IMG/VR virus record: IMGVR_UViG_3300025789_000018
Length of the DNA: 64,000 nucleotides
Strand: one strand, 5' to 3'
DNA from: a virus
Lineage: Duplodnaviria > Caudoviricetes
Position 1 is the stretch's first letter. Every line of letters begins with the position of its first letter. Below, piece after piece: positions 1 to 10,573 of the stretch. The notes under the pieces are model-generated. The model had not been told where the DNA came from and made no database searches. It was given only the letters and a program-made list of their open reading frames with translations. A program made the translations under genes and the position numbers.

Positions 1-16
1 AAATCTTTCTTTATTA

Positions 17-571
17 TCAAGCATTCATGTAGTCTGCAAAAAGGTCATTTTTGATTGCTTCCTGCGCATAGATAATCAGATTTTTGCGTTCTTCATTGGA
101 GAGCTTATCAACCAAAATAGTAGCATTGACATATTCTCCATCCTTACCGCCCGACGCTTCTTTCCACTTGAACTTGTACCCAAAATGCTTTTGCATTTCG
201 TTATGAAATAGATTTTCCATGAAAGTGGTATTTTCCTCGCTGCAATAAAGAACACGAACAAAACAACTATCGGGATTTAGATTTTGGCGAATATAAGTGC
301 CTGCGCCATGAGAATTTGAGTTAGTTTTTGAATTTGCAGTCTGGCGAATCTTATATGTTCTATCATGAATATTAGAACTCTTGCCAATATATCCAATATG
401 AGGGCTTACAAGATCATCGCCGATAAGCTCAATATCTTCACCATCAGCCACCTGATAAATCCCAGTAGAACCGTACTGAGAATCTAGACTGCGCTGAACG
501 TTGTTGGAAGAAGGCAATTCAGAAATTTTTCTCCACTCAGAAATATGCGTAATTTTACTCTTATCAATCAT
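17..571 (-). CDS. GIY-YIG-family nuclease (endonuclease II/DenA-like or homing-type)
   Basis: GIY(QVA)...YIG(KS) motifs, followed by Arg in HDRT and Glu in FMENLF, in GIY-YIG order; GGAG RBS; own sigma70-like promoter at 608-636. Confidence 0.6.
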   Translation of the reverse strand: MIDKSKITHISEWRKISELPSSNNVQRSLDSQYGSTGIYQVADGEDIELIGDDLVSPHIGYIGKSSNIHDRTYKIRQTANSKTNSNSHGAGTYIRQNLNPDSCFVRVLYCSEENTTFMENLFHNEMQKHFGYKFKWKEASGGKDGEYVNATILVDKLSNEERKNLIIYAQEAIKNDLFADYMNA

Positions 572-607
572 TTAATAATTCTCCATAATGTAGGTAGTAG
601 TAACAGC

Positions 608-636
608 AGCTTATATCATTTTTCACTGCAAGTCAA
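608..636 (-). promoter_or_regulatory. sigma70-like promoter for the GIY-YIG gene
   Basis: Minus strand reads TTGACT-N17-TAAGCT, overlapping the 3' end of the GNAT gene. Confidence 0.5.
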
Positions 637-1135
637 TAGCTGATACAACGCCGCCCTTTCTTCCACTATTTACTGCAGAAGAGATGACATCATCATAATC
701 ATAGATACCATCAGTGTATCGGTCTCCCCCTATTTTAAAAATACTTAAAGAAGAGCCAGACTTCTGTTTTCCCCAAAACTTGAATCCACACTTTTTGTAG
801 AATGGAACAGCATCAGGTTCAGCAGAAACTCTAAAATATACAGCATCCATTTTCATAGCTTTCAGTAAAGCGTAATCAGTTAGCACTCTACCCACACCCT
901 TTCCTCTGTGAGAATGGAATGTGTGAAGTAATTGAAGATTTGCCACCTTTGGATCACGTTTGCTGACTGTAACAATTATTGCTCCAAGCAACTCGTCGCC
1001 ATCCCATGCTCCGGTGCAATGTGCCCACTGATCTTGCATGTTGGCTTTAGCTAAGAATGTCTTAGCAAACGAATCTTCTTTTTTGTTAGTGATGGCTGCG
1101 GTAAATTGTTCTTTGCTACAATTAAGTAACTTCAT
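623..1135 (-). CDS. GNAT-family N-acyltransferase
   Basis: LQLLHTFHSHRGKGVGRVL (acyl-CoA-binding motif A) and AVPFYKKCGF (motif B). Start moved from the track's 1201 to ATG 1135 (MKLLNC), which overlaps the upstream stop. Confidence 0.85.
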   Translation of the reverse strand: MKLLNCSKEQFTAAITNKKEDSFAKTFLAKANMQDQWAHCTGAWDGDELLGAIIVTVSKRDPKVANLQLLHTFHSHRGKGVGRVLTDYALLKAMKMDAVYFRVSAEPDAVPFYKKCGFKFWGKQKSGSSLSIFKIGGDRYTDGIYDYDDVISSAVNSGRKGGVVSAIDLQ

Positions 1136-1994
1136 GGAACTCGCGCTTTTTTTCTCCACGCTCTTTATCATATTTGGTATCAACCCATCCTGAATATTCA
1201 TTAGCGTTCCAAATAAATGGAGGAAACTTCAGTTCATATTTATCAAGAATATCTTCCACACTATCACCACCATTCAGAGCAGCATCAATGAAAGCCTCAG
1301 CAAATATGAACTGAGATTCAAGTTCTTCTCTTTTAGTAGTTGATCGGAAACAGCGGAACTCAATAGTTCCTGTGTGCTTCATGCAATATGTGTTGATTGC
1401 ATATCGGAAAGGCCGACCCATAGAAATACCATCTTTACCTGCAGCATGCAATTTGATAAAATGGTTAAAGTCTGTGGCCATGTTAATGATGTTGTCACAC
1501 ATATATTCAGGCATAACACGACCGCCATCATATTTTAGATATGTTTTGGCATTCTTGAATCCCTTCATATCTACACGATCTTCAAACTGATAACAAGCAG
1601 CAATGGTAGCTTCTTGATTCTTCTTGATATAAGAAACCAGTCTCTTTAGTGCATCAAGATCATCTTTAAGGCCAGGAACAAATACATGAAGATGGCCATG
1701 ATTAACACAAGAAGATGATGGAGTATTACCGTGATCTTCAAATATCTTTTTAATTTCTAGAATACGATCAACCTGTTCTTGCCAAGTTTTAGTAGGCTTG
1801 GTGTTTATTTCTCCACCCATAGGAGGTTCTAGACCTAGCGGATCACACGCAATATACTTGTAATCGCCGTGGATATTCACAATATCAGTTTCAGCGTATT
1901 CCCACTTTCCTAAGTTTTCTGGAATACTAATAGAGCGATCAATATCACCCCATTCAATTTCATATCCCCAAGTATAGTCTTTAGTGTTATACAT
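1122..1994 (-). CDS. Putative amidoligase (COOH-NH2 ligase / glutamine-synthetase-like, Amidoligase_2 type)
   Basis: TWGYEIEW, GGEINTKP, HGHLHVFV and TIEFRCF match the GxExE...E...HxH...ExR pattern. Start moved to ATG 1994, overlapping the GATase stop (ATGTATAA). Confidence 0.75.
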   Translation of the reverse strand: MYNTKDYTWGYEIEWGDIDRSISIPENLGKWEYAETDIVNIHGDYKYIACDPLGLEPPMGGEINTKPTKTWQEQVDRILEIKKIFEDHGNTPSSSCVNHGHLHVFVPGLKDDLDALKRLVSYIKKNQEATIAACYQFEDRVDMKGFKNAKTYLKYDGGRVMPEYMCDNIINMATDFNHFIKLHAAGKDGISMGRPFRYAINTYCMKHTGTIEFRCFRSTTKREELESQFIFAEAFIDAALNGGDSVEDILDKYELKFPPFIWNANEYSGWVDTKYDKERGEKKREFHEVT

Positions 1995-2679
1995 GTTGTA
2001 AATCTTTCTTTCGTACAATATCAACTTCGTGTCGTTCTATCAAAAAACTAACATCGTTCATAAAGTATGTAACATAAGGTTTTGCTTCAGCAATTCCAGA
2101 AACTCCGGCACGATGTAAAATGTCTTTAGTCGATGCAAAAACAACACTCTTAGGCTTATATGAATAATACAAAGGACGCTTACCGTTTCTAAAAAAAGAT
2201 ACTTGTTTATTATACAAAGACAATACAGCACCAGAAATAGAAGCATCTTCCCAAATAAAAGGACTTTTACCTTCAGCCAAACTTTTTAGTAAGAGTTCAG
2301 AATCATTTTTAGTATTACACTTATATCCATAAAGCTCTTCCCATCGCTCAGGAAGTTCTTGAGATATGACACCATTATGGACTAACGAAATCTGAGAAGT
2401 TTCTAGAGGCTGATTATACAACAAGTCAGAAGTGGAATATCTGCAATGTCCAACAAAGCATATATTTCCATCTTCATTTACTAGTTGCTCAAACTCATAA
2501 GTTTCAGCAAATTCATCAGCAGGAAGAGCAGTTCGCTCTGTCCAAATTTGTCCATCTTTGATATATGAAAGACCTGTAGCGTGTTTACCTCTGATCCGAG
2601 ATTCAATAAAAATATTTCTGATAGTAGTAAAATCGGCTTCAGTTGGATCAGAAATATAAGCGCCGATAATACCACACAT
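1987..2679 (-). CDS. Class II (Ntn) glutamine amidotransferase
   Basis: N-terminal MCGIIG (Cys2 nucleophile), GHCRYST, HNGVI, NDSE motifs. Confidence 0.9.
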   Translation of the reverse strand: MCGIIGAYISDPTEADFTTIRNIFIESRIRGKHATGLSYIKDGQIWTERTALPADEFAETYEFEQLVNEDGNICFVGHCRYSTSDLLYNQPLETSQISLVHNGVISQELPERWEELYGYKCNTKNDSELLLKSLAEGKSPFIWEDASISGAVLSLYNKQVSFFRNGKRPLYYSYKPKSVVFASTKDILHRAGVSGIAEAKPYVTYFMNDVSFLIERHEVDIVRKKDLQHV

Positions 2680-4016
2680 TAAAAGAAACTTTCTAGAGAA
2701 CCTGCTGTACTCTTGTCATAAGGATCAGTCATACCGTGCGCAGCAAGGTAGTCAAACCATTCTTGCTCGTCCCACATACCAGGACTCACACCATTCCAAA
2801 GTTTACGCTGAAGGGGATGGTCTTTATTAAGTCTGCGGGAATCAACAAACTTCTTACGAAGCTGTTCATATTCCCAACTTCCAGGTTCAAGCATATCTTC
2901 ACGGAAGTATGCAACAATAGTCATACGATCAGGATTCTCGCCCCGAATTTCTGCATTACCATGGATAGCAGTATGGTTTGCCACAAGGAGAAGATCACCA
3001 GGCTCTAGTTTTACTGCTGCACGATATTCAGGGAGGATAAGTTCCGCGCCTTCCCAACCAGCACCAAGACCGGATAGGTTCGAGAATCCTGACGCAAGAT
3101 CGCCCGCATCGAGGTGCGCGGCGGTGCGGAAATTGTGATTCACTGTAAGAGTAGTGAATACAGTATCAGAAATCAAAAAGTTAGGATCAAGTTTATCTGC
3201 AGCTGCTCTTTGGTTGCCCCAACGCTGCGGAAGAAGTTGGCTGAAACAATGATTCAGCTTCTTCAAATACGGAAAGCTCTTTTCGAAATCCTGCGGATTC
3301 TTTTCAGTAAAAGCAGTTGCTCGCTTATAAGGAATTCTAGGATACCGAGAATAATATCCAGCAACGCCAGACATAACAGTTTGTGCGTAGTTAGTTTCCG
3401 AAATATAATTGTCAAGAATATACTTGGCTTCCGCTCGGCGAGTGTCTTCATGTTTATTGCTTAGACCCTCAACCCAACGATCAAACCATCCAAAATAAGG
3501 ATCATGATCTTTACAGACTTCACTGCGCAACCACACGCAACCACGAGTCTGATCAGGCTCTTTCTTTTGATGTTTAATCTTGATAGATTCTAGACTTTCA
3601 TCATCAAACACAGAAACGTTAGTTCTGGTGAGATATTCAAGAACATCAATCTGATAATTAGAAACCCACTCACGACCACCTCGACCAGAAGCAGAAAGCA
3701 TTTCACCGCGAGGGCCAGCAGCCATACCGCGATTCTGCGATTCAGAGGCAGCACCAATCAGACCTTCATAACAAAGGTAAAGTTCTTCTTGAGTAAAAAC
3801 GTTCTTACGAAATTTCAGGATAATATTATCTTCAGTCATGCTTCCATCAAGAGAAGGACCATAAACGTCAGTATCTTCTGTCAATAAGACATCATAATGG
3901 CTCTCATCAACAAAGCTGCCGATAAGATGATCGCTAGGAATCTTTTGATCAATATAAATTGTTTTTACTGACAAAGAAGTGCAAGGACGGTCGCAGTCTT
4001 TCACGCAGTCTTTCAT
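2679..4016 (-). CDS. TET/JBP-family 2-oxoglutarate/Fe(II) dioxygenase
   Basis: FTTLTVNHNFRTAAHLDAGD (HxD), GDLLLVANHTAIHGN (distal His) and RMTIVAYFRE (2OG Arg) resemble the JBP/TET catalytic core. ATG 4016 follows a GGAG RBS; TAATG overlap with GATase. Confidence 0.85.
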   Translation of the reverse strand: MKDCVKDCDRPCTSLSVKTIYIDQKIPSDHLIGSFVDESHYDVLLTEDTDVYGPSLDGSMTEDNIILKFRKNVFTQEELYLCYEGLIGAASESQNRGMAAGPRGEMLSASGRGGREWVSNYQIDVLEYLTRTNVSVFDDESLESIKIKHQKKEPDQTRGCVWLRSEVCKDHDPYFGWFDRWVEGLSNKHEDTRRAEAKYILDNYISETNYAQTVMSGVAGYYSRYPRIPYKRATAFTEKNPQDFEKSFPYLKKLNHCFSQLLPQRWGNQRAAADKLDPNFLISDTVFTTLTVNHNFRTAAHLDAGDLASGFSNLSGLGAGWEGAELILPEYRAAVKLEPGDLLLVANHTAIHGNAEIRGENPDRMTIVAYFREDMLEPGSWEYEQLRKKFVDSRRLNKDHPLQRKLWNGVSPGMWDEQEWFDYLAAHGMTDPYDKSTAGSLESFF

Positions 4017-4041
4017 AATAATCTCCAAATAACGAGCAACA

Positions 4042-4070
4042 AGTATACTATAAAGTTACAAACTTGTCAA
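4042..4070 (-). promoter_or_regulatory. Near-consensus sigma70 promoter for the TET/JBP operon
   Basis: Minus strand reads TTGACA-N17-TATACT, embedded in the last codons of def, about 25 nt upstream of ATG 4016. Confidence 0.75.
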
Positions 4071-4569
4071 CTGCTTTTCGCATACGCTGCAGTTTTTTCC
4101 AATCTTTCTTGGCCCGTTCTTTATCTAACGACTCTGCACGGTCAAGATGGCATTTACCAATAAGATGATCGTATTCATGAAGGAATACTCTTGCCGTCAT
4201 ACCATCAAATGTGTGTGTTTTGATATATCCATCAGGAAAAGCAAATCGCACTTTGATCATTCTAGGACGCTTGATCTTAACAATCAACTTAGGATATGAT
4301 AGACAGCTTTCTTCCATTTTAATTGTCTCAGAAGAAACCTCAACAATCTTAGGATTAAACGCCACAATAGGAGTTTCTCCAATCATTGCAAAAATCTGAT
4401 AAGGATAACCAACCTGTGGAGCAGCAAGACCAAGACCACGATGTTCTTTCATCTTTTTGATCAGCTCAATGGAAAATTCCATGGGGTCAAAAGGAGGATT
4501 ATCAAAGTTAAACCTTTGAGCCGGAGTCTTTAAAATAGGATCATTATGAGAAACAAGCTCAAGATTCAT
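4048..4569 (-). CDS. def: Peptide deformylase
   Basis: GLGLAAPQVG, EESCLS (EGCLS variant) and HEYDH motifs. Confidence 0.92.
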   Translation of the reverse strand: MNLELVSHNDPILKTPAQRFNFDNPPFDPMEFSIELIKKMKEHRGLGLAAPQVGYPYQIFAMIGETPIVAFNPKIVEVSSETIKMEESCLSYPKLIVKIKRPRMIKVRFAFPDGYIKTHTFDGMTARVFLHEYDHLIGKCHLDRAESLDKERAKKDWKKLQRMRKAVDKFVTL

Positions 4570-4946
4570 TACTTAACTCCCAAAACTTTTCTAAGATTAG
4601 GACGTTCGTAATTTGGACCCTTTTTAATCTTGCCATCTTCACGATAAACAGGCTTTCCATCTTCGCCCAGTTTGGTCATATTACTCCGATGCACTTCAGC
4701 ATAACACTTATCAAGATCAATACCAAAAGCAAGACCTGCTCCGTAAGTGACGTACAAAATATCAGTGAGAGCATCGGCAACCTCAACGATGTCTTTATCT
4801 TTGATAGCATCTTTTAGCTCCTCTAGTTCTTCACGAATTAATTCGTAACGAAGTTCTACAACATCATTGCTAGGAAACTTTGGCTTGGTTGCAATCTTTT
4901 GGCCAAACTTTTCCATGAACTCTTTACCTTTTTCAAAATTAGTCAT
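4569..4946 (-). CDS. MazG-like / PRA-PH-like NTP pyrophosphohydrolase
   Basis: LIREELEEL and EVADALTDILYVTYG acidic helices (ExxE...ExxD), plus VHRSNMTK. Confidence 0.85.
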   Translation of the reverse strand: MTNFEKGKEFMEKFGQKIATKPKFPSNDVVELRYELIREELEELKDAIKDKDIVEVADALTDILYVTYGAGLAFGIDLDKCYAEVHRSNMTKLGEDGKPVYREDGKIKKGPNYERPNLRKVLGVK

Positions 4947-5148
4947 TTTTAATCTCCGTAGCCCAATTGACTGTTACCCAGTCTTCAATACAGTTTTCTT
5001 CTGTAATTAATTCATGGCCTTCGCCATACTTTTTAACCATTCGTTCTTTCCAATACGGCCAGTATTCAAATAAAATCTCAGCTTCATCATAAACAAATTC
5101 TACAGGATTACCGTCTTCATTCGGCTCAACATAAGAATATTTTGTCAT
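4939..5148 (-). CDS. Hypothetical protein (69 aa)
   Basis: Coupled ORF overlapping both neighbours; no recognisable motif. Confidence 0.6.
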   Translation of the reverse strand: MTKYSYVEPNEDGNPVEFVYDEAEILFEYWPYWKERMVKKYGEGHELITEENCIEDWVTVNWATEIKND

Positions 5149-6863
5149 ACTGACATCCTCGAAAAATTCTTGACCTTATCGAACTTAAGAATTCGGCCAA
5201 ATTTATCACTAATGTTTTCAGTCTTATGCGAAATAATAAAGATATTGGAGTCGCCCAGAAGAGTCTTAAGAATCTTCATGAACTCTTCCGAACCCGTTGC
5301 ATCAAGCGCCCCATCGAAGATTTCGTCCATGACCAATAGATTTGTGCTATTGCTATTTCTGAGCTTAGAGATTGTACGCCAACATAGCATAAGAGCAAGA
5401 TCAATGCGGCATTTTTCGCCTTCGCTAAAGGACTCGTAGGAGAAGTCGTCTCTATGTCTTGACCTAATTTTTTCATTGAAGTTTTCATCCAGTTCGAATT
5501 GGACAAAGAAGTCCATTGCGGTCAAGTATTTATTAATCAATTTATTCATGATAGGAACGTATTGCTTAATAATTTTTGCTTTGATACCACTATCCTTTAG
5601 TAGTACAGAAGCTAGATCGAGAGTTGACTTTTGTTTTATAAGGGTTTCAGTTTCTGCTGTGTATTCAACCAATTGGTTTTGAAGTTCTACGAGTTTAGCA
5701 GTTTCTTCTTTAATGGTATCATCATCTCCCTGAACCTTGGTCACTTCAGATTCTTCAAGCTGAATTTGCTTTTGGATAAAATCAACTTGATTATTGTTTG
5801 TATTAATAGTCGACCAAAGATCAATTATTTTATCACGAACTTCTTTGATATCAGCCAACCTCAGAGAAACCGCATTGTATTCCTCTTCGAGTTTAGTTAA
5901 AGCATCACACAGTTCGTGTTCTTTTCTTTCGCGATCGGAAACGCTATCCGCTTTGAACGTGTCATCAATACTTTGCTTACAAGTAGGACAGCTATCATTC
6001 TCTCGGAAAAACGCGATTTCCTTTTGCAACTTAGATTGGCGAGTTTCCATTTGCTTTTCTAGTTGAAGCAATGAAGTCTGTTTCTTAGAAAGAGCCGCCT
6101 CATCATTTACCGAAAGCTCAAGTTCTTCGACTTGTGTATTCAGCAAACGATTTTGCTCAACCAGATCAGAAATAGAGTCTCTCATATTCTGAATGAGAGT
6201 TTTCTTGCCTTCAATTATTTTATCACTACTTTGCTTAAGACTCAAGATATGCTTATTTTGCATATCAATCTTTTCCTGAGCTAAGGTAGCTTTATACTTC
6301 ACATCAATGATATTGCCTTTATTTTCAGATAGTTTATCTTTCAGCAAAGAATACATCGTCGAGAAAATCTGAATGTCTAGAAGATTTTCATTAAATTCAC
6401 GACGAGCGTGTGCAGGCATTTGCATGAACGGAACATAAGTCGAAGAACCCAAAGTAACAATTTGAGTGAACGACTTATGATTCATCCGCAGAATATGTTT
6501 CTCAAGATATTCCTGATAGTCTCTAGTTGCAGCATCCTGATTTACCAAGGTGCCGTTTTGAATGATTTCAAAAATATTAGGTCGCATACCACGACGAACT
6601 AGATACTCATTAGAATTAATACTGAATTCAATCTCACAAAGAAGATTCTTGGCATTGATGCTGTTAATAAGCTGAGGCTTATTAATTTTACGGAACGGTT
6701 TTCCATAAAGAGCAAAAGAGATAGCGTCGATGAATGTGCTTTTACCTGACCCGTTATGACCGACAATCAAAGTCATAGGGTGCGTATCGATATCAATTTC
6801 TGTAAATGTATTTCCGGTGGAGAGTAAATTCATCCACCGAACTTTTTTAAATGTAATTGCCAT
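5145..6863 (-). CDS. 46: Recombination endonuclease ATPase subunit, T4 gp46 (Rad50/SbcC-like)
   Basis: Walker A GHNGSGKST, zinc hook CPTC, signature FSEGE, Walker B LVMDEIFD, ISH. Confidence 0.95.
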   Translation of the reverse strand: MAITFKKVRWMNLLSTGNTFTEIDIDTHPMTLIVGHNGSGKSTFIDAISFALYGKPFRKINKPQLINSINAKNLLCEIEFSINSNEYLVRRGMRPNIFEIIQNGTLVNQDAATRDYQEYLEKHILRMNHKSFTQIVTLGSSTYVPFMQMPAHARREFNENLLDIQIFSTMYSLLKDKLSENKGNIIDVKYKATLAQEKIDMQNKHILSLKQSSDKIIEGKKTLIQNMRDSISDLVEQNRLLNTQVEELELSVNDEAALSKKQTSLLQLEKQMETRQSKLQKEIAFFRENDSCPTCKQSIDDTFKADSVSDRERKEHELCDALTKLEEEYNAVSLRLADIKEVRDKIIDLWSTINTNNNQVDFIQKQIQLEESEVTKVQGDDDTIKEETAKLVELQNQLVEYTAETETLIKQKSTLDLASVLLKDSGIKAKIIKQYVPIMNKLINKYLTAMDFFVQFELDENFNEKIRSRHRDDFSYESFSEGEKCRIDLALMLCWRTISKLRNSNSTNLLVMDEIFDGALDATGSEEFMKILKTLLGDSNIFIISHKTENISDKFGRILKFDKVKNFSRMSV

Positions 6864-6870
6864 GCTATTC

Positions 6871-7932
6871 CTATTCTAACGAAAGAGCCTCGCTGTAAAG
6901 ATCCGTCAACAAAAGGCTTAACGAGTTCTTATCAATATCAGCATCAATGTTGGTAACATATTTCTTCAAAAAAGACATAGTGTCTTCAGCGCCATCAACG
7001 ACATCGCTTTCATCTTCTAGAGCAAGATTAATATCACTTTCAACAACTTCTATGTTCAAAGGATCAGACGCTTCTAGTTTATCAAGAAACAAGTCAAACC
7101 AATAATGGTTGGTCTTTTCTTTAACAATAACCTTCACATACGTATTGCGATAGGCTTCCGCATCAAAATCTAGTATACTCGAAGAAGAGTGTCCAGCGTC
7201 ATCGTAGTACACCTTATGGAACATAATATATGGGTTTGGCACAAAAGTCAAGTCCCGAGTTTCGGTATCGAAAATATGAAAGCCTTTTTGGTCGCCGTAG
7301 TCAGACCAGTCCATTTCATAGGGGCATCCCAGATAGTGGATATTGCCACGAGAAGATCTATGATGCAGGTGTCCAGAAGCCACCAATTCAAACTTATTAA
7401 AGACATAAGACTCTAATCCGTGAGAGACATAAACCCCTCTGTGCATCTCAAACCCAACAATCTCAAGATGACCAAACATCATTTGAGCGCGAGTTTCGTC
7501 AATAAGTTTCATAGCATCTTCTTGATTGTCTTGGCAGATCCAAGGCATCAAAACAATATCAAGGCCACCGATATTAACGACTTGCGGACTTTGAATAATA
7601 TGAAAGTTCTTATATCGACTGAACACAAGCTCAGGTGTGTTAACAGAAATAGTATTTTTGAAATACGCCGTGTGATTACCAACGATATAATAGTAATTAA
7701 TATTGCGCGATTCTAGTTGATCAAACCACATTTCTTTCGAGCGCGATAGCGTAAAAAAGTTGACGAACTTCCTACGCTCAAACGTATCACCCAAATCAAT
7801 AACAGTGTCTATCTTATTCTCATCAATATATGGAAATACTACGTTTTCATAAAACTTCTCGTAGTAATCCAGAAAAGCAACATTATCATTACGAATACCG
7901 AAGTGTTGGTCAGTAATCAACAATACTTTCAT
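6871..7932 (-). CDS. 47: Recombination endonuclease nuclease subunit, T4 gp47 (Mre11/SbcD-like)
   Basis: ITDQHFG, DLGDTF, VGNH, GHLE, SGHLH metallophosphoesterase motifs; adjacent to gp46. Confidence 0.95.
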   Translation of the reverse strand: MKVLLITDQHFGIRNDNVAFLDYYEKFYENVVFPYIDENKIDTVIDLGDTFERRKFVNFFTLSRSKEMWFDQLESRNINYYYIVGNHTAYFKNTISVNTPELVFSRYKNFHIIQSPQVVNIGGLDIVLMPWICQDNQEDAMKLIDETRAQMMFGHLEIVGFEMHRGVYVSHGLESYVFNKFELVASGHLHHRSSRGNIHYLGCPYEMDWSDYGDQKGFHIFDTETRDLTFVPNPYIMFHKVYYDDAGHSSSSILDFDAEAYRNTYVKVIVKEKTNHYWFDLFLDKLEASDPLNIEVVESDINLALEDESDVVDGAEDTMSFLKKYVTNIDADIDKNSLSLLLTDLYSEALSLE

Positions 7933-7945
7933 AATATAGTCCCAA

Positions 7946-8146
7946 TCAATATTTGATTCTGCGCTTCATTTGTTTTAGTTCTAACTCTTTGTCAAAACTA
8001 TCAACATTTCGCTTGCAGAAATCAGCGATGTTTTCAAGCGAAGTTCTATAATTAAATCTAATGTGTTCCGGCGCGCTTTTGTCGTTCAGCTTACTGATCA
8101 TATCAGCAACTGGCGCTGGAATAATAATATCTTTAGCCATCTTCAT
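7946..8146 (-). CDS. Hypothetical protein (66 aa)
   Basis: ORF fills the gp55-gp47 gap; start overlaps the gp55 stop. Confidence 0.55.
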   Translation of the reverse strand: MKMAKDIIIPAPVADMISKLNDKSAPEHIRFNYRTSLENIADFCKRNVDSFDKELELKQMKRRIKY

Positions 8147-8741
8147 TATCCTCTACAAATACATCTAACCCTTTTTTCTTTGGGGTTTTTTTGTTTTTGA
8201 GCTTTGTTTCATAATCAGAAACAAATTTGCCCATTCGTTCAGTATGATCTACTGTATGAGAAGATGACCCTTTTATAGCAGTTTTGCTTGTTTCACTATT
8301 AACAAACTCGGTCAGTTCATCCATGATATCCATATTCTCGAATATCTTGTATTTGACGTAAGTCTGTCTGTGCTCTTTAGCGATCCTATGCAAAAAGGCA
8401 TTATATATGATCATAGTGAAATAGGCAAATGGATTATTGCTTTTGTCAGGGTTAAAATTGTGCATGTATGCGATGCAATTTTCTATCCCGTCTCCAATCA
8501 TCTCCTCTTTATATGTATATGATATAAAGTTATGTTTGTATGATAATTTTGTGGCAATCTTTAAAATACAATCGCCAACATATTCTGGGATTCTGGGAAG
8601 CGGCTTATTGTTTTCTTTTGCATCACGATACTCATTGATATAATGAATCATATATCCGTAGAGCTTCTTGTTATCTACGTAATGCGGCTGACTTTTCTTT
8701 AGTGCTTTTTTTGACACCTTAATCACTTTTTCACTTGACAT
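8133..8741 (-). CDS. 55: Late-transcription sigma factor, T4 gp55
   Basis: HYVDNKKL, YTYKEEMIGDGIENC, NFNPDKSNNPFAYFTMIIYNAF; synteny with gp47/gp46. Confidence 0.93.
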   Translation of the reverse strand: MSSEKVIKVSKKALKKSQPHYVDNKKLYGYMIHYINEYRDAKENNKPLPRIPEYVGDCILKIATKLSYKHNFISYTYKEEMIGDGIENCIAYMHNFNPDKSNNPFAYFTMIIYNAFLHRIAKEHRQTYVKYKIFENMDIMDELTEFVNSETSKTAIKGSSSHTVDHTERMGKFVSDYETKLKNKKTPKKKGLDVFVEDNEDG

Positions 8742-8777
8742 ATTTCAAAACTCCGGTATAATCACGAATGTGCCTTA

Positions 8778-9134
8778 TTAATGGATACTGCTATTACTCG
8801 TCCTAAGCATATTCTTAAACACATCCAAAGCATCATCTCTATCTGATGCCTTTTTCTTTTTCTTTCGACGTTGTTCTCTAAATTCCTCAAAGTTAGTAAC
8901 AACATCTTTGATAGGATCAACTAAAAACAGAATATCCGTCTTACGGATTTCAATAGGATCATCTGTCGTTGCACAATATCTAACAAAATACAACACAAAG
9001 TCCGATCCGTCCCAATAGGATTTGGAAGCTAACGAGTCGTGTAAAGTATATGTTTCTTTAGTTGAATCTTTTTCAAGATCAATATCTGCTATGATCTCAT
9101 CACCGTTGATTAGTTTTACTACTTTTAATGTCAT
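8778..9134 (-). CDS. Conserved hypothetical protein between uvsW and gp55
   Basis: KVVKLINGDEIIA N-terminus seen in small T4-like phage proteins; position; function unknown. Confidence 0.6.
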   Translation of the reverse strand: MTLKVVKLINGDEIIADIDLEKDSTKETYTLHDSLASKSYWDGSDFVLYFVRYCATTDDPIEIRKTDILFLVDPIKDVVTNFEEFREQRRKKKKKASDRDDALDVFKNMLRTSNSSIH

Positions 9135-10573
9135 TCTATACCAACCTTATATGTTTTAAAGTCGAATCCTTCAGTTGCGTAGATTTTAATTCTTTCTCTG
9201 TAGTGATTTGCTGTATGGTTAGTATGTGACTTGTAGCTAAGATCATCAGCAATATCAAATAGAGTAGCAATTGATTTGGTAGAAGATTTGCGCAATGCTC
9301 TACCTATAGACTGAAGAATACGTACAATAGATTTACTTGGAGAAGCAAATATCAAATTGTGTAAATTCTTGATATTAGTTCCTGTGGACATTGTGCCATA
9401 AGAAGCGACTATTATGGCGTTGCTTTCTTTTTCGACTATGTGTCGAATTTCTTCTCTTTCCTCACCATCCACACCACCGTGAACAAAGAAAACTGGTCGA
9501 TCCCCTGCATTATCTTTTATTAGATTGTAAAGAACTTCACCATGTTTCTCTACATACTGATAAAGGATCAGAGTGTTTCCTTGTAGAGAAAGAGCAAGAT
9601 TCTTAATGAATTTGTTTCTAGATTCTTTGCGAACAATAAAGTCCATTTCTTCTTGATATGATGCTTTCTTTACTTCTTTACATACCTCTTCTGGATAGGT
9701 AAGAACGATAGCCTTTATCAGAAGATTAGAAACGTGTTTCTTTTCCATTAACTCAGTAGTGGAGATGACTTTCTTAACTCTACCAAATAGTCCTTCAAGC
9801 ACTAGCTTATTTGTTAGTGTTCCATCCAGTGTGCCTGTGAGACCGTAGCGGTATTTACATTTGGTCAGTTTAGTCATAATAGAAACAAGAGAAGTGGCTT
9901 TGAATAAGTGGGCTTCGTCTCCGAATACAGCACCGAACTGATCAAACCATTCCTTTGGTTGTTTTGCTATAGACTGCCAAGTAGTTACTGTAATATCGCA
10001 GTTAGTTTTCTTATCTACACCGCCTGTAATTTTATACACTTTACTCGTGTATCCATAATCAGCAAAGTCTCCAGCTAGCTGATGTACAAGCGAAATAGAT
10101 GGAACGATGATAAGAGTTTTTTCATTGAGGAAACGGGCAAGAAGATATATGATTAAAGATTTTCCTGAAGCTGTTGGAGAAATCAATAATGCTCTTCTAT
10201 TCCGGACTCCATAAACAAAAGCATCAATTTGGTGATCGTATGGTACATGAGGCAACTCTAGTTCTTTGATAAACTGTTTTGCTTCAGCTACTGAAAAATT
10301 ATCCGCTGCATTGTTATATTCGTATTCAACTTCATAGCCTCTATCACTAGCGAATTTCTCAACTAAAGGTGTCAGACCTGCATAAAGTTGTTTTGTTAAT
10401 ACATTGTATAGGCGGATTTTGCCATCCCAGATTTTAGCTTTTACCTTTGGATGGAACTGTGCGTTTGGTATCGTGAAAGTAAAATAATCAGAAAGCTCGT
10501 AAGAAGTCGATGCCTCAGCATGAATCTTTACGTAAACTTCATCCACTTTCTTGATTATTAATTTTTCCGTCAT
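9131..10573 (-). CDS. uvsW: SF2 DNA helicase UvsW
   Basis: SPTASGKS, DEAH, GLTGT, QSIGRALR; follows uvsY. Confidence 0.95.
   Translation of the reverse strand: MTEKLIIKKVDEVYVKIHAEASTSYELSDYFTFTIPNAQFHPKVKAKIWDGKIRLYNVLTKQLYAGLTPLVEKFASDRGYEVEYEYNNAADNFSVAEAKQFIKELELPHVPYDHQIDAFVYGVRNRRALLISPTASGKSLIIYLLARFLNEKTLIIVPSISLVHQLAGDFADYGYTSKVYKITGGVDKKTNCDITVTTWQSIAKQPKEWFDQFGAVFGDEAHLFKATSLVSIMTKLTKCKYRYGLTGTLDGTLTNKLVLEGLFGRVKKVISTTELMEKKHVSNLLIKAIVLTYPEEVCKEVKKASYQEEMDFIVRKESRNKFIKNLALSLQGNTLILYQYVEKHGEVLYNLIKDNAGDRPVFFVHGGVDGEEREEIRHIVEKESNAIIVASYGTMSTGTNIKNLHNLIFASPSKSIVRILQSIGRALRKSSTKSIATLFDIADDLSYKSHTNHTANHYRERIKIYATEGFDFKTYKVGIE

Follow-up and report, generated by a model that had tools for sequence, protein, structure and literature searches.

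Phages M6, ViI and PaMx11 make hypermodified thymidines with a kinase of the 5-hydroxymethyldeoxyuridine (5-hmdU) DNA kinase family and an amino acid:DNA transferase (AADT), followed by tailoring enzymes, and the PaMx11 pathway also ends with an N-acetylating GNAT (PMC8989533). The kinase and AADT steps, and the acetylation of 5-aminomethyldeoxyuridine (5-NmdU) in DNA by a GNAT, have been characterised (PMC8989533), and the same work (Lee et al., NAR 2021) already lists metavirome contigs in which these genes accompany Tet_JBP, amidoligase and glutaminotransferase domains. A further paper divides phage thymine dioxygenases (5mYOX) into a ParB-dependent clade C1 and a ParB-independent clade C2, and describes the ParB-dependent enzymes as linked to glutamine amidotransferases (GATases), kinases and AADTs (O'Toole et al., PNAS 2026, PMC13229309). 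Here we analyse a gene cluster of this general kind in a 64,000-nucleotide (nt) stretch of viral DNA (Duplodnaviria; Caudoviricetes; IMG/VR record IMGVR_UViG_3300025789_000018), called the window below. An earlier note on this DNA had proposed that four genes at positions 623-4070, encoding a TET/JBP dioxygenase, a GATase, an amidoligase and a GNAT, form a DNA base hypermodification operon. We find that these genes most likely belong to a larger cluster for post-replicative thymidine hypermodification, which has a conserved core of six genes and of which they form the half nearest the promoter; they are not a stand-alone four-enzyme pathway.

The four co-oriented open reading frames (ORFs) lie on the minus strand of the window, and the same genes are predicted by a gene caller on an identical public contig (L004). 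The promoter, the four genes and the start of the fifth are as follows.

4070..4042, minus strand: promoter of sigma-70 type, TTGACA-N17-TATACT, which lies within the 3' end of a peptide deformylase gene; 11/12 matches
4016..2679, minus strand: JBP-like TET/JBP 2-oxoglutarate- and Fe(II)-dependent dioxygenase (TET), 445 amino acids (aa), Pfam Tet_JBP; predicted thymine dioxygenase making 5-hmdU in DNA
2679..1987, minus strand: stand-alone class-II (N-terminal nucleophile, Ntn) glutamine amidotransferase (GATase, GAT), 230 aa, GATase_6; predicted ammonia donor
1994..1122, minus strand: glutamine synthetase (GS)-fold amidoligase (COOH-NH2 ligase, AMID), 290 aa; predicted to use ATP to amidate the carboxylate of the adduct
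1135..623, minus strand: GNAT N-acyltransferase, 170 aa; predicted to acylate the amine of the adduct
1..24, minus strand: amino acid:DNA transferase (AADT), first 8 codons (MLDNKERF); the gene runs off the left edge of the window and encodes 334 aa on L004

The overlaps read in the sequence equal those of the gene calls on L004: TAATG at 2679 between the dioxygenase and GATase genes, 8 nt (ATGTATAA at 1987-1994) between the GATase and amidoligase genes, and 14 nt (1122-1135) between the amidoligase and GNAT genes. The overlapping stop and start codons described in the earlier note are present, and the four genes are translationally coupled. The promoter that the note assigned to the operon is present too; no other site in 5.2 kb scores above 9/12, and sites as a whole are as numerous as in shuffled sequences. 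Other boundaries needed correction. The dioxygenase most likely starts at ATG 4016 (445 aa, as gene-called), which is preceded by GGAG 6 nt upstream, and not at TTG 4028; the GNAT (170 aa) starts at 1135, as do its relatives; and the operon, which had been ended at 623, continues through the AADT and kinase genes beyond the left edge of the window, making it twice as long.

This continuation is seen on L004, a 124-kb metagenome contig that was retrieved with the 184-aa protein encoded next to the GNAT gene and whose positions 1-10571 are the reverse complement of window positions 10571-1 at 100% identity. The AADT matches PF18724 with 72 bits, and directly after it lies a 182-aa P-loop kinase that matches Ploopntkinase3 (PF18751, 46 bits), the 5-hmdU DNA kinase family, so that Tet_JBP, PF18751 and PF18724 fall within 5.5 kb of one contig. 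Because an AADT and a kinase of this family follow directly on L004, the four genes are best read as the first half of a thymidine hypermodification cluster, and the hypermodification operon of the earlier note is borne out in this longer form. Positions 10548-14793 of L004 hold, on the same strand, the AADT, the kinase, a DUF3310 gene, a VWA gene, a GT-A-like ORF and the gene for the gp45 sliding clamp. The cluster is flanked on L004 by gp46/47, UvsW, gp45/44/62, RegA and gp43, and the phage DNA polymerase is ~50% identical to cyanomyovirus polymerases; judged by this gene content, the source is an uncultured, T4-like, cyanomyovirus-related phage.

We propose that the cluster of this phage encodes a five-step thymidine hypermodification route, a reading that we consider probable. 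Thymine in replicated DNA would first be oxidised to 5-hmdU by the JBP-like dioxygenase, the hydroxymethyl group would be phosphorylated by the P-loop kinase, and the phosphate would be exchanged for an amino acid by the AADT. The GS-fold amidoligase would then activate the amino acid's free carboxylate with ATP and convert it to a carboxamide, with ammonia supplied from glutamine by the stand-alone Ntn GATase, and the pair would act like a split asparagine synthetase. Last, the GNAT would acylate the adduct's amine. The predicted product is an uncharged, doubly capped amino-acid adduct on thymine, and the calculated nucleoside masses of such an amidated, acylated adduct are ~356 u if glycine is N-linked and ~386 u if serine is O-linked. 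The first three steps are assigned because their enzymes have characterised homologues (PMC8989533; PMC13229309), and the last two because of enzyme class, intact active sites and gene fusions. The sequences show directly the identities of the domains, the intactness of the catalytic residues, the linkage of the genes and their fusions; we infer the substrates, the order of steps four and five, the identity of the amino acid and whether these two steps take place on DNA.

The dioxygenase matches Pfam Tet_JBP (PF12851) with 79.2 bits against a cut-off of 34.9, and H301, D303, H352, R364 and R372 are invariant in 39 homologues, with the HxD...H...R arrangement kept. Direct sequence search of the Protein Data Bank (PDB) with this protein gave nothing useful and folds were needed. 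When its AF2 model (pLDDT 82.8) was compared with Swiss-Prot structures, the best 15 matches were all trypanosomatid thymine dioxygenases, JBP2 or JBP1 (E 5e-15 to 1e-11), followed by NgTET (2e-8) and animal TETs (~3e-4); the best matches in the PDB are CcTet, NgTET1, TET2 and CMD1. Because the structural matches rank JBP2 and JBP1 first, then NgTET, then animal TETs, the model identifies the enzyme as a nucleic-acid 5-methylpyrimidine oxygenase closer to JBP than to TET. The JBP-like character suspected earlier is thus upheld, and in both structure collections the fold is closest to TET/JBP oxygenases and not to protein or small-molecule hydroxylases.

Genome-wide absences were assessed in G001, a complete related 168-kb genome with direct terminal repeats. 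G001 has ThyX; it has no ThyA-fold enzyme (hydroxymethylase) and no C5-methyltransferase (PF00145), and no C5-methyltransferase is found among the called genes around the cluster either. DNA of G001 is therefore made with T, and thymine in DNA is the likely, and the only plausible, substrate predicted for the dioxygenase, as the earlier note had suggested. By contrast, phage TET systems that act on 5-methylcytosine pair the dioxygenase with a C5-methyltransferase and a glycosyltransferase (Burke et al. 2021).

The GATase matches GATase_6 with an E value of 3e-13. Its C2, the nucleophile directly after Met, and R80, N102, G103 and D126 are invariant in 15 relatives; direct sequence search of the PDB gave nothing useful and profiles were needed, and a profile of the family aligns with the glutaminase domains of PurF and GlmS, starting at Cys1. 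We conclude from these alignments that the protein is an Ntn glutaminase that stands alone and is apparently active. The GNAT scores above the cut-off of three Pfam families, Acetyltransf_10 (E 4e-13), Acetyltransf_1 and Acetyltransf_7, and has the acyl-CoA-binding R/Q-x-x-G-x-G/A motif in the form RGKGVG. Profile searches thus confirm three of the four domain calls of the earlier note (Tet_JBP, GATase and GNAT) directly.

The fourth call, the amidoligase, stands by a longer path. The 290-aa ORF reaches only 15.7 bits against Pfam Amidoligase_2 (PF12224), below the cut-off of 22 (E 0.014), and does so over its C-terminal part only, so that a direct profile match is not obtained. An exhaustive search with the ORF retrieved 288 representative relatives; the homologues P0150, P0219 and P0140 exceed the Amidoligase_2 cut-off (homologue scores 24-43 bits), and hhalign aligns the family with P0150 at a probability of 100. 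In the PDB, the AF2 model (pLDDT 97.8) is matched by glutamine synthetase, gamma-glutamylmethylamide synthetase (GmaS) and gamma-glutamylcysteine ligase; in AFDB, it is matched by many clusters labelled 'Amidoligase enzyme'. E12, E14, E62, R197, E212 and R214 are invariant, and H101 and H103 nearly so. Because of this fold and these intermediate homologues, we identify the protein, by model and sequence, as a GS-fold COOH-NH2 ligase; the missed Pfam cut-off is a limit of sensitivity and not a defining feature of the family. In another phage, a distant relative of the amidoligase (L095:6935-8873, 31% identity) adjoins genes for GTP cyclohydrolase I and PTPS, which suggests a role in the 7-deazaguanine pathway there. 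Isoelectric points are uninformative about DNA binding by these proteins, since the dioxygenase, the AADT and the kinase are themselves acidic.

Linkage of the genes in other viruses was counted among close kin. An amidoligase 70-76% identical to that of the window is encoded by 235 IMG/VR viral contigs, of which 80 were kept for neighbourhood counts. These 80 related contigs conserve the order TET-GAT-AMID-GNAT-(variable slot)-AADT-KIN, where KIN is the kinase, so that the four genes do co-occur in other genomes. A GNAT gene adjoins the amidoligase gene in all 80 loci; the GATase is present in 78, the dioxygenase in 68, the AADT in 64 and the kinase in 59, and contig ends may explain some of the gaps. 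Gene fusions tie the same functions together among amidoligase relatives: the amidoligase is fused to a GATase (P0219), to a GNAT (P0190), to a 5-hmdU DNA kinase (P0140, P0171), to both GNAT and kinase in the order GNAT-amidoligase-kinase (P0131, P0139), and to a TET-associated glycosyltransferase (TAGT; P0253).

More distant contexts place these enzymes in other settings. An 82-kb phage contig that encodes P0139 (L098) has a GATase and an AADT adjoining the GNAT-amidoligase-kinase fusion, and the 16-kb stretch of it that we read also holds HMUDK_hel and a Thymidylat_synt-family gene, which probably encodes a dUMP hydroxymethylase; none of the genes called in this stretch is a TET. On L093, an amidoligase relative occurs with an AADT, a PLP enzyme and a radical SAM enzyme, and on L099 a GATase-amidoligase fusion is followed by a GNAT. 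Because of the fusions and of these three independent contexts, GATase, amidoligase and GNAT are, as far as gene arrangement tells, the tailoring module of a 5-hmdU-derived modification, whatever the source of the 5-hmdU.

These arrangements bear on the route favoured in the earlier note, by which the dioxygenase would oxidise the methyl group stepwise to 5-carboxyuracil, the amidoligase and GATase would convert this to the 5-carboxamide, and the GNAT would acylate it, with no part for a kinase or an AADT. A carboxylate and ammonia are indeed what an amidoligase/GATase pair needs, and phage thymine dioxygenases can oxidise iteratively (PMC13229309). However, an AADT and a kinase adjoin the four genes here and recur in most related loci (64/80 and 59/80), amidoligases are fused to 5-hmdU kinases, L098 has the GATase, amidoligase and GNAT with kinase, AADT and Thymidylat_synt-family gene in a 16-kb stretch in which no TET was called, and a primary carboxamide is, in general chemistry, a poor substrate for a GNAT. 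Oxidation to the carboxyl followed by amidation is probably wrong, and we regard the route as a whole as very improbable. Because the AADT and kinase genes adjoin, no TET is called in the stretch of L098 that we read and the amidoligase is fused to kinases, its substrate is more likely the carboxylate of the AADT-added amino acid.

The same observations speak to a reading in which GATase, amidoligase and GNAT have their target in a peptide, in the cell wall or among metabolites and are merely neighbours of DNA modification genes, as proposed for cassettes of LUZ24/RIO-1-like phages. GATase relatives do occur in LUZ24-like phages, in a cassette read as 'peptidoglycan modification' (PMC11945000), and a peptide deformylase gene lies next to the cluster. 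The LUZ24/RIO-1 cassette, however, has GGCT and ATP-grasp genes with its GAT-II and COOH-NH2 ligase genes, and neither GGCT nor ATP-grasp is found among the 27 called genes of L004; in cultured phages the amidoligase family here has no more than two matches, both weak; the amidoligase is tied to kinase and AADT by fusions and by repeated linkage; and the genes are translationally coupled to the dioxygenase. Of the readings considered, we hold this one to be the most improbable.

Two further features were noted, the first of which is a set of C-terminal peptides of the form L-[ED]-x-F-[FYV].

Window 2679-2700, minus strand: C-terminus of the dioxygenase, SLESFF
Window 8133-8175, minus strand: C-terminus of the gp55-like late sigma factor, GLDVFVEDNEDG
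L004 11530-11552: C-terminus of the AADT, GLEMFYG
L004 19915-19940: C-terminus of the phage's own DNA polymerase gp43, TLEDFFND

Only the dioxygenase and the gp55-like ORF carry such a tail among the 101 ORFs of the window, and in relatives it is kept on the dioxygenase, the AADT and some GNATs and never found on GAT, AMID or KIN. In T4, both gp43 and gp55 use such C-terminal peptides to bind the gp45 clamp, which makes tethering of the DNA-acting enzymes via gp45 plausible from their sequences. When a complex of the gp45 trimer and the C-terminal 55 residues of the dioxygenase was predicted, the score was 0.50 against 0.32 for the best control, which is evidence neither way. These polymerase-like peptides suggest a possible coupling of post-replicative modification to the replication fork.

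The second feature is the variable slot between the GNAT and AADT genes, which in the window holds one ORF.

17..571, minus strand: 184-aa GIY-YIG/T5orf172-like ORF (T5orf172 E 0.0086) between GNAT and AADT, overlapping the AADT start by 8 nt

No counterpart of this ORF is present in any of the 80 related loci (absent from 80/80), and it is probably a lineage-specific insert and not a pathway enzyme; it may be an insertion of the homing-endonuclease type. Of 64 relatives, 23 have nothing in the slot, 3 have a 192-aa ORF there, and the other 38 have a fast-evolving ORF of 420-500 aa with a GIY-YIG-like N-terminus and a ParB/Srx-like 'DGNHT' core (alignment A3; e.g. L050:11433-12722). A profile of this longer ORF matches Noc, ParB and SbnI (best E 4e-4), and by this similarity it is probably the 5mYOX-associated ParB of PMC13229309. 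That the 184-aa ORF derives from a decayed ParB-like gene was considered and rejected, since hhalign finds no similarity between it and the ParB-like insert family. Profile A3 finds no match in the window plus 10 kb (74 kb readable), nor in the complete relative G001. Mapped on the tree of the dioxygenases, gains and losses of the ParB-like gene number at least 6, and the window's dioxygenase groups with ParB-associated enzymes. Close relatives with and without the putative activator offer a natural experiment on ParB dependence.

Whether amidation and acylation take place on the DNA is the point at which the five-step route meets its closest competitor. In this alternative, the amidoligase, the GATase and perhaps the GNAT would tailor a free small molecule, an amine or amino-acid amide, which the AADT would then transfer to phosphorylated 5-hmdU, with the same class of final base. 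The closest solved folds of the amidoligase are all small-molecule ligases, the substrate range of AADTs includes non-proteinogenic amines such as putrescine (PMC8989533), and the AADT of this phage is 37% identical to that of L098 as against 25-29% to AADT relatives in cultured phages, which would fit a dedicated donor. By contrast, the 5-hmdU DNA kinase and the TET-associated glycosyltransferase to which amidoligases are fused act on DNA, as does the characterised PaMx11 GNAT (PMC8989533), and some relatives' GNATs have the clamp-like tail. We consider a free donor unlikely, though a serious rival.

Several findings nevertheless weigh against the five-step route as we have drawn it. GS-fold ligases usually act on small molecules, so the amidoligase and GATase could make a free donor, and both lack the clamp-like C-terminal peptide, unlike the dioxygenase and the AADT, as a free-donor role would allow. 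Amidoligase relatives at 31-35% identity occur in unrelated contexts, and GATase-amidoligase cassettes of LUZ24/RIO-1-like phages occur without an AADT or a kinase (PMC11945000). The nearest TET relatives often have the ParB-like partner that is missing here, so that activity of the dioxygenase alone is not assured. We found no cultured phage that carries this gene set, and no close DNA match in cultured phages.

With these points counted, the five-step route remains the reading that we favour. In a more specific form of it, polymer DNA itself would be the substrate of the amidoligase and GATase, which would work as the two halves of a split enzyme like asparagine synthetase and, together with the GNAT, would yield an uncharged thymine adduct of a new kind. 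The dioxygenase and the AADT (and the GNAT in relatives) would be held at the replication fork by their clamp-type peptides, with no need for a ParB-like activator. We offer this fuller version tentatively and think it unlikely in all its parts.

Some observations concern the surroundings of the cluster. The GC content is 39.7%, compared with 38.0% in the window, and so does not clearly mark the genes as a foreign island. On the downstream side, DUF3310 and VWA were considered as members of the pathway and rejected, as they are not conserved in the relatives (80 loci). Between VWA and gp45 lies the 320-aa ORF (L004:13118-14080) that looks GT-A-like (Anp1/Glycos_transf_2) by weak Pfam hits and language-model features; 19 of the 80 relatives have it after the kinase, and it could glycosylate some of the 5-hmdU. 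On the upstream side is the following gene.

4048..4569, minus strand: peptide deformylase (Pep_deformylase E 1e-33), upstream neighbour of the dioxygenase

It lies directly upstream of the dioxygenase gene and contains the operon promoter, and the same adjacency to a TET homologue is seen in Stenotrophomonas phage DLP6. As speculation, a phage deformylase might help to expose the N-terminal Cys of the Ntn GATase.

Thymidine hypermodifications shield phage DNA from restriction enzymes and other nucleases, and the pathways behind them supply enzymes for adding new chemistry to DNA. The main papers of the field state explicitly that the functions of the recurrent amidoligase and glutamine amidotransferase genes are unknown, and we found no reaction assigned in the literature to the amidoligase or GATase of this cluster. 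With 235 viral contigs the clade described here is abundant; its clusters are compact, with translational coupling, and its fusions tie the amidoligase to 5-hmdU kinase/AADT chemistry; these properties therefore yield a concrete hypothesis, amidation plus acylation of an amino-acid adduct, that can be tested with six genes. The earlier note had suggested that no characterised pathway has this enzyme set, and none has come to light; the association of Tet_JBP, kinase, AADT, amidoligase and glutamine amidotransferase in viral metagenomes is already published (PMC8989533; PMC13229309). The kind of system is thus known, and this enzyme combination and its product are uncharacterised.

Compared with described enzymes one by one, the cluster combines familiar parts. 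Trypanosomatid JBP1 and JBP2, which take part in base J formation, are the best structural matches to the whole 445-aa dioxygenase model at 17-20% identity and share its HxD...H...R arrangement; the phage enzyme, by contrast, has no SNF2 or J-binding domain, and it is followed by predicted kinase and AADT chemistry and not by shown glucosylation. In asparagine synthetase B and other glutamine-dependent amidotransferases, as proposed here, an Ntn glutaminase feeds ammonia to an ATP-dependent, carboxylate-activating partner, whereas the partner in this cluster is a separate GS-fold amidoligase and not a fused adenylating PP-loop domain, so the likeness is a mechanistic analogy and not family membership.

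Among cultured T4-like phages, Caulobacter phage Cr30 and Stenotrophomonas phage DLP6 encode dioxygenases 42-51% identical to that of the window, annotated 'SNF2 DNA repair protein'. Both lack the GATase, the amidoligase and the GNAT, and Cr30 instead has a TAGT-like glycosyltransferase and inositol-1-phosphate synthase. The Cr30 block (L097, 49573-64535) comprises these last two genes together with an AADT (179 bits), a dGTP_diPhyd_N-like gene and the TET homologue, whose annotation is wrong, and is an uncharacterised, experimentally tractable thymine-modification cluster in a cultured phage. In phage C48C1 (L003, 49583-53030), a TET homologue is followed by a 344-aa ORF and UDP-galactopyranose mutase, which hints at a galactofuranose-type, base-J-like modification.

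The 5mYOX systems (PMC13229309) resemble this cluster in having a TET/JBP enzyme with no C5-methyltransferase and in its linkage to a GATase, a P-loop kinase and an AADT. The phage studied here differs from the ParB-dependent ones in having no ParB-like gene (74 kb, plus G001), although 38 of 64 relatives have a ParB/Srx-like gene inside the cluster. Phages M6, ViI and PaMx11 share with it the kinase of the 5-hmdU DNA kinase family and the AADT ahead of the tailoring enzymes, and PaMx11 also the closing GNAT (PMC8989533). By contrast with these three, the 5-hmdU here is predicted to come from a JBP-like dioxygenase acting in DNA and not from dUMP; tailoring would be carried out by an amidoligase and an Ntn GATase and not by PLP, radical SAM or FAD enzymes; and the cluster resides in a T4-like phage, with an AADT at most 29% identical to any from a cultured phage.

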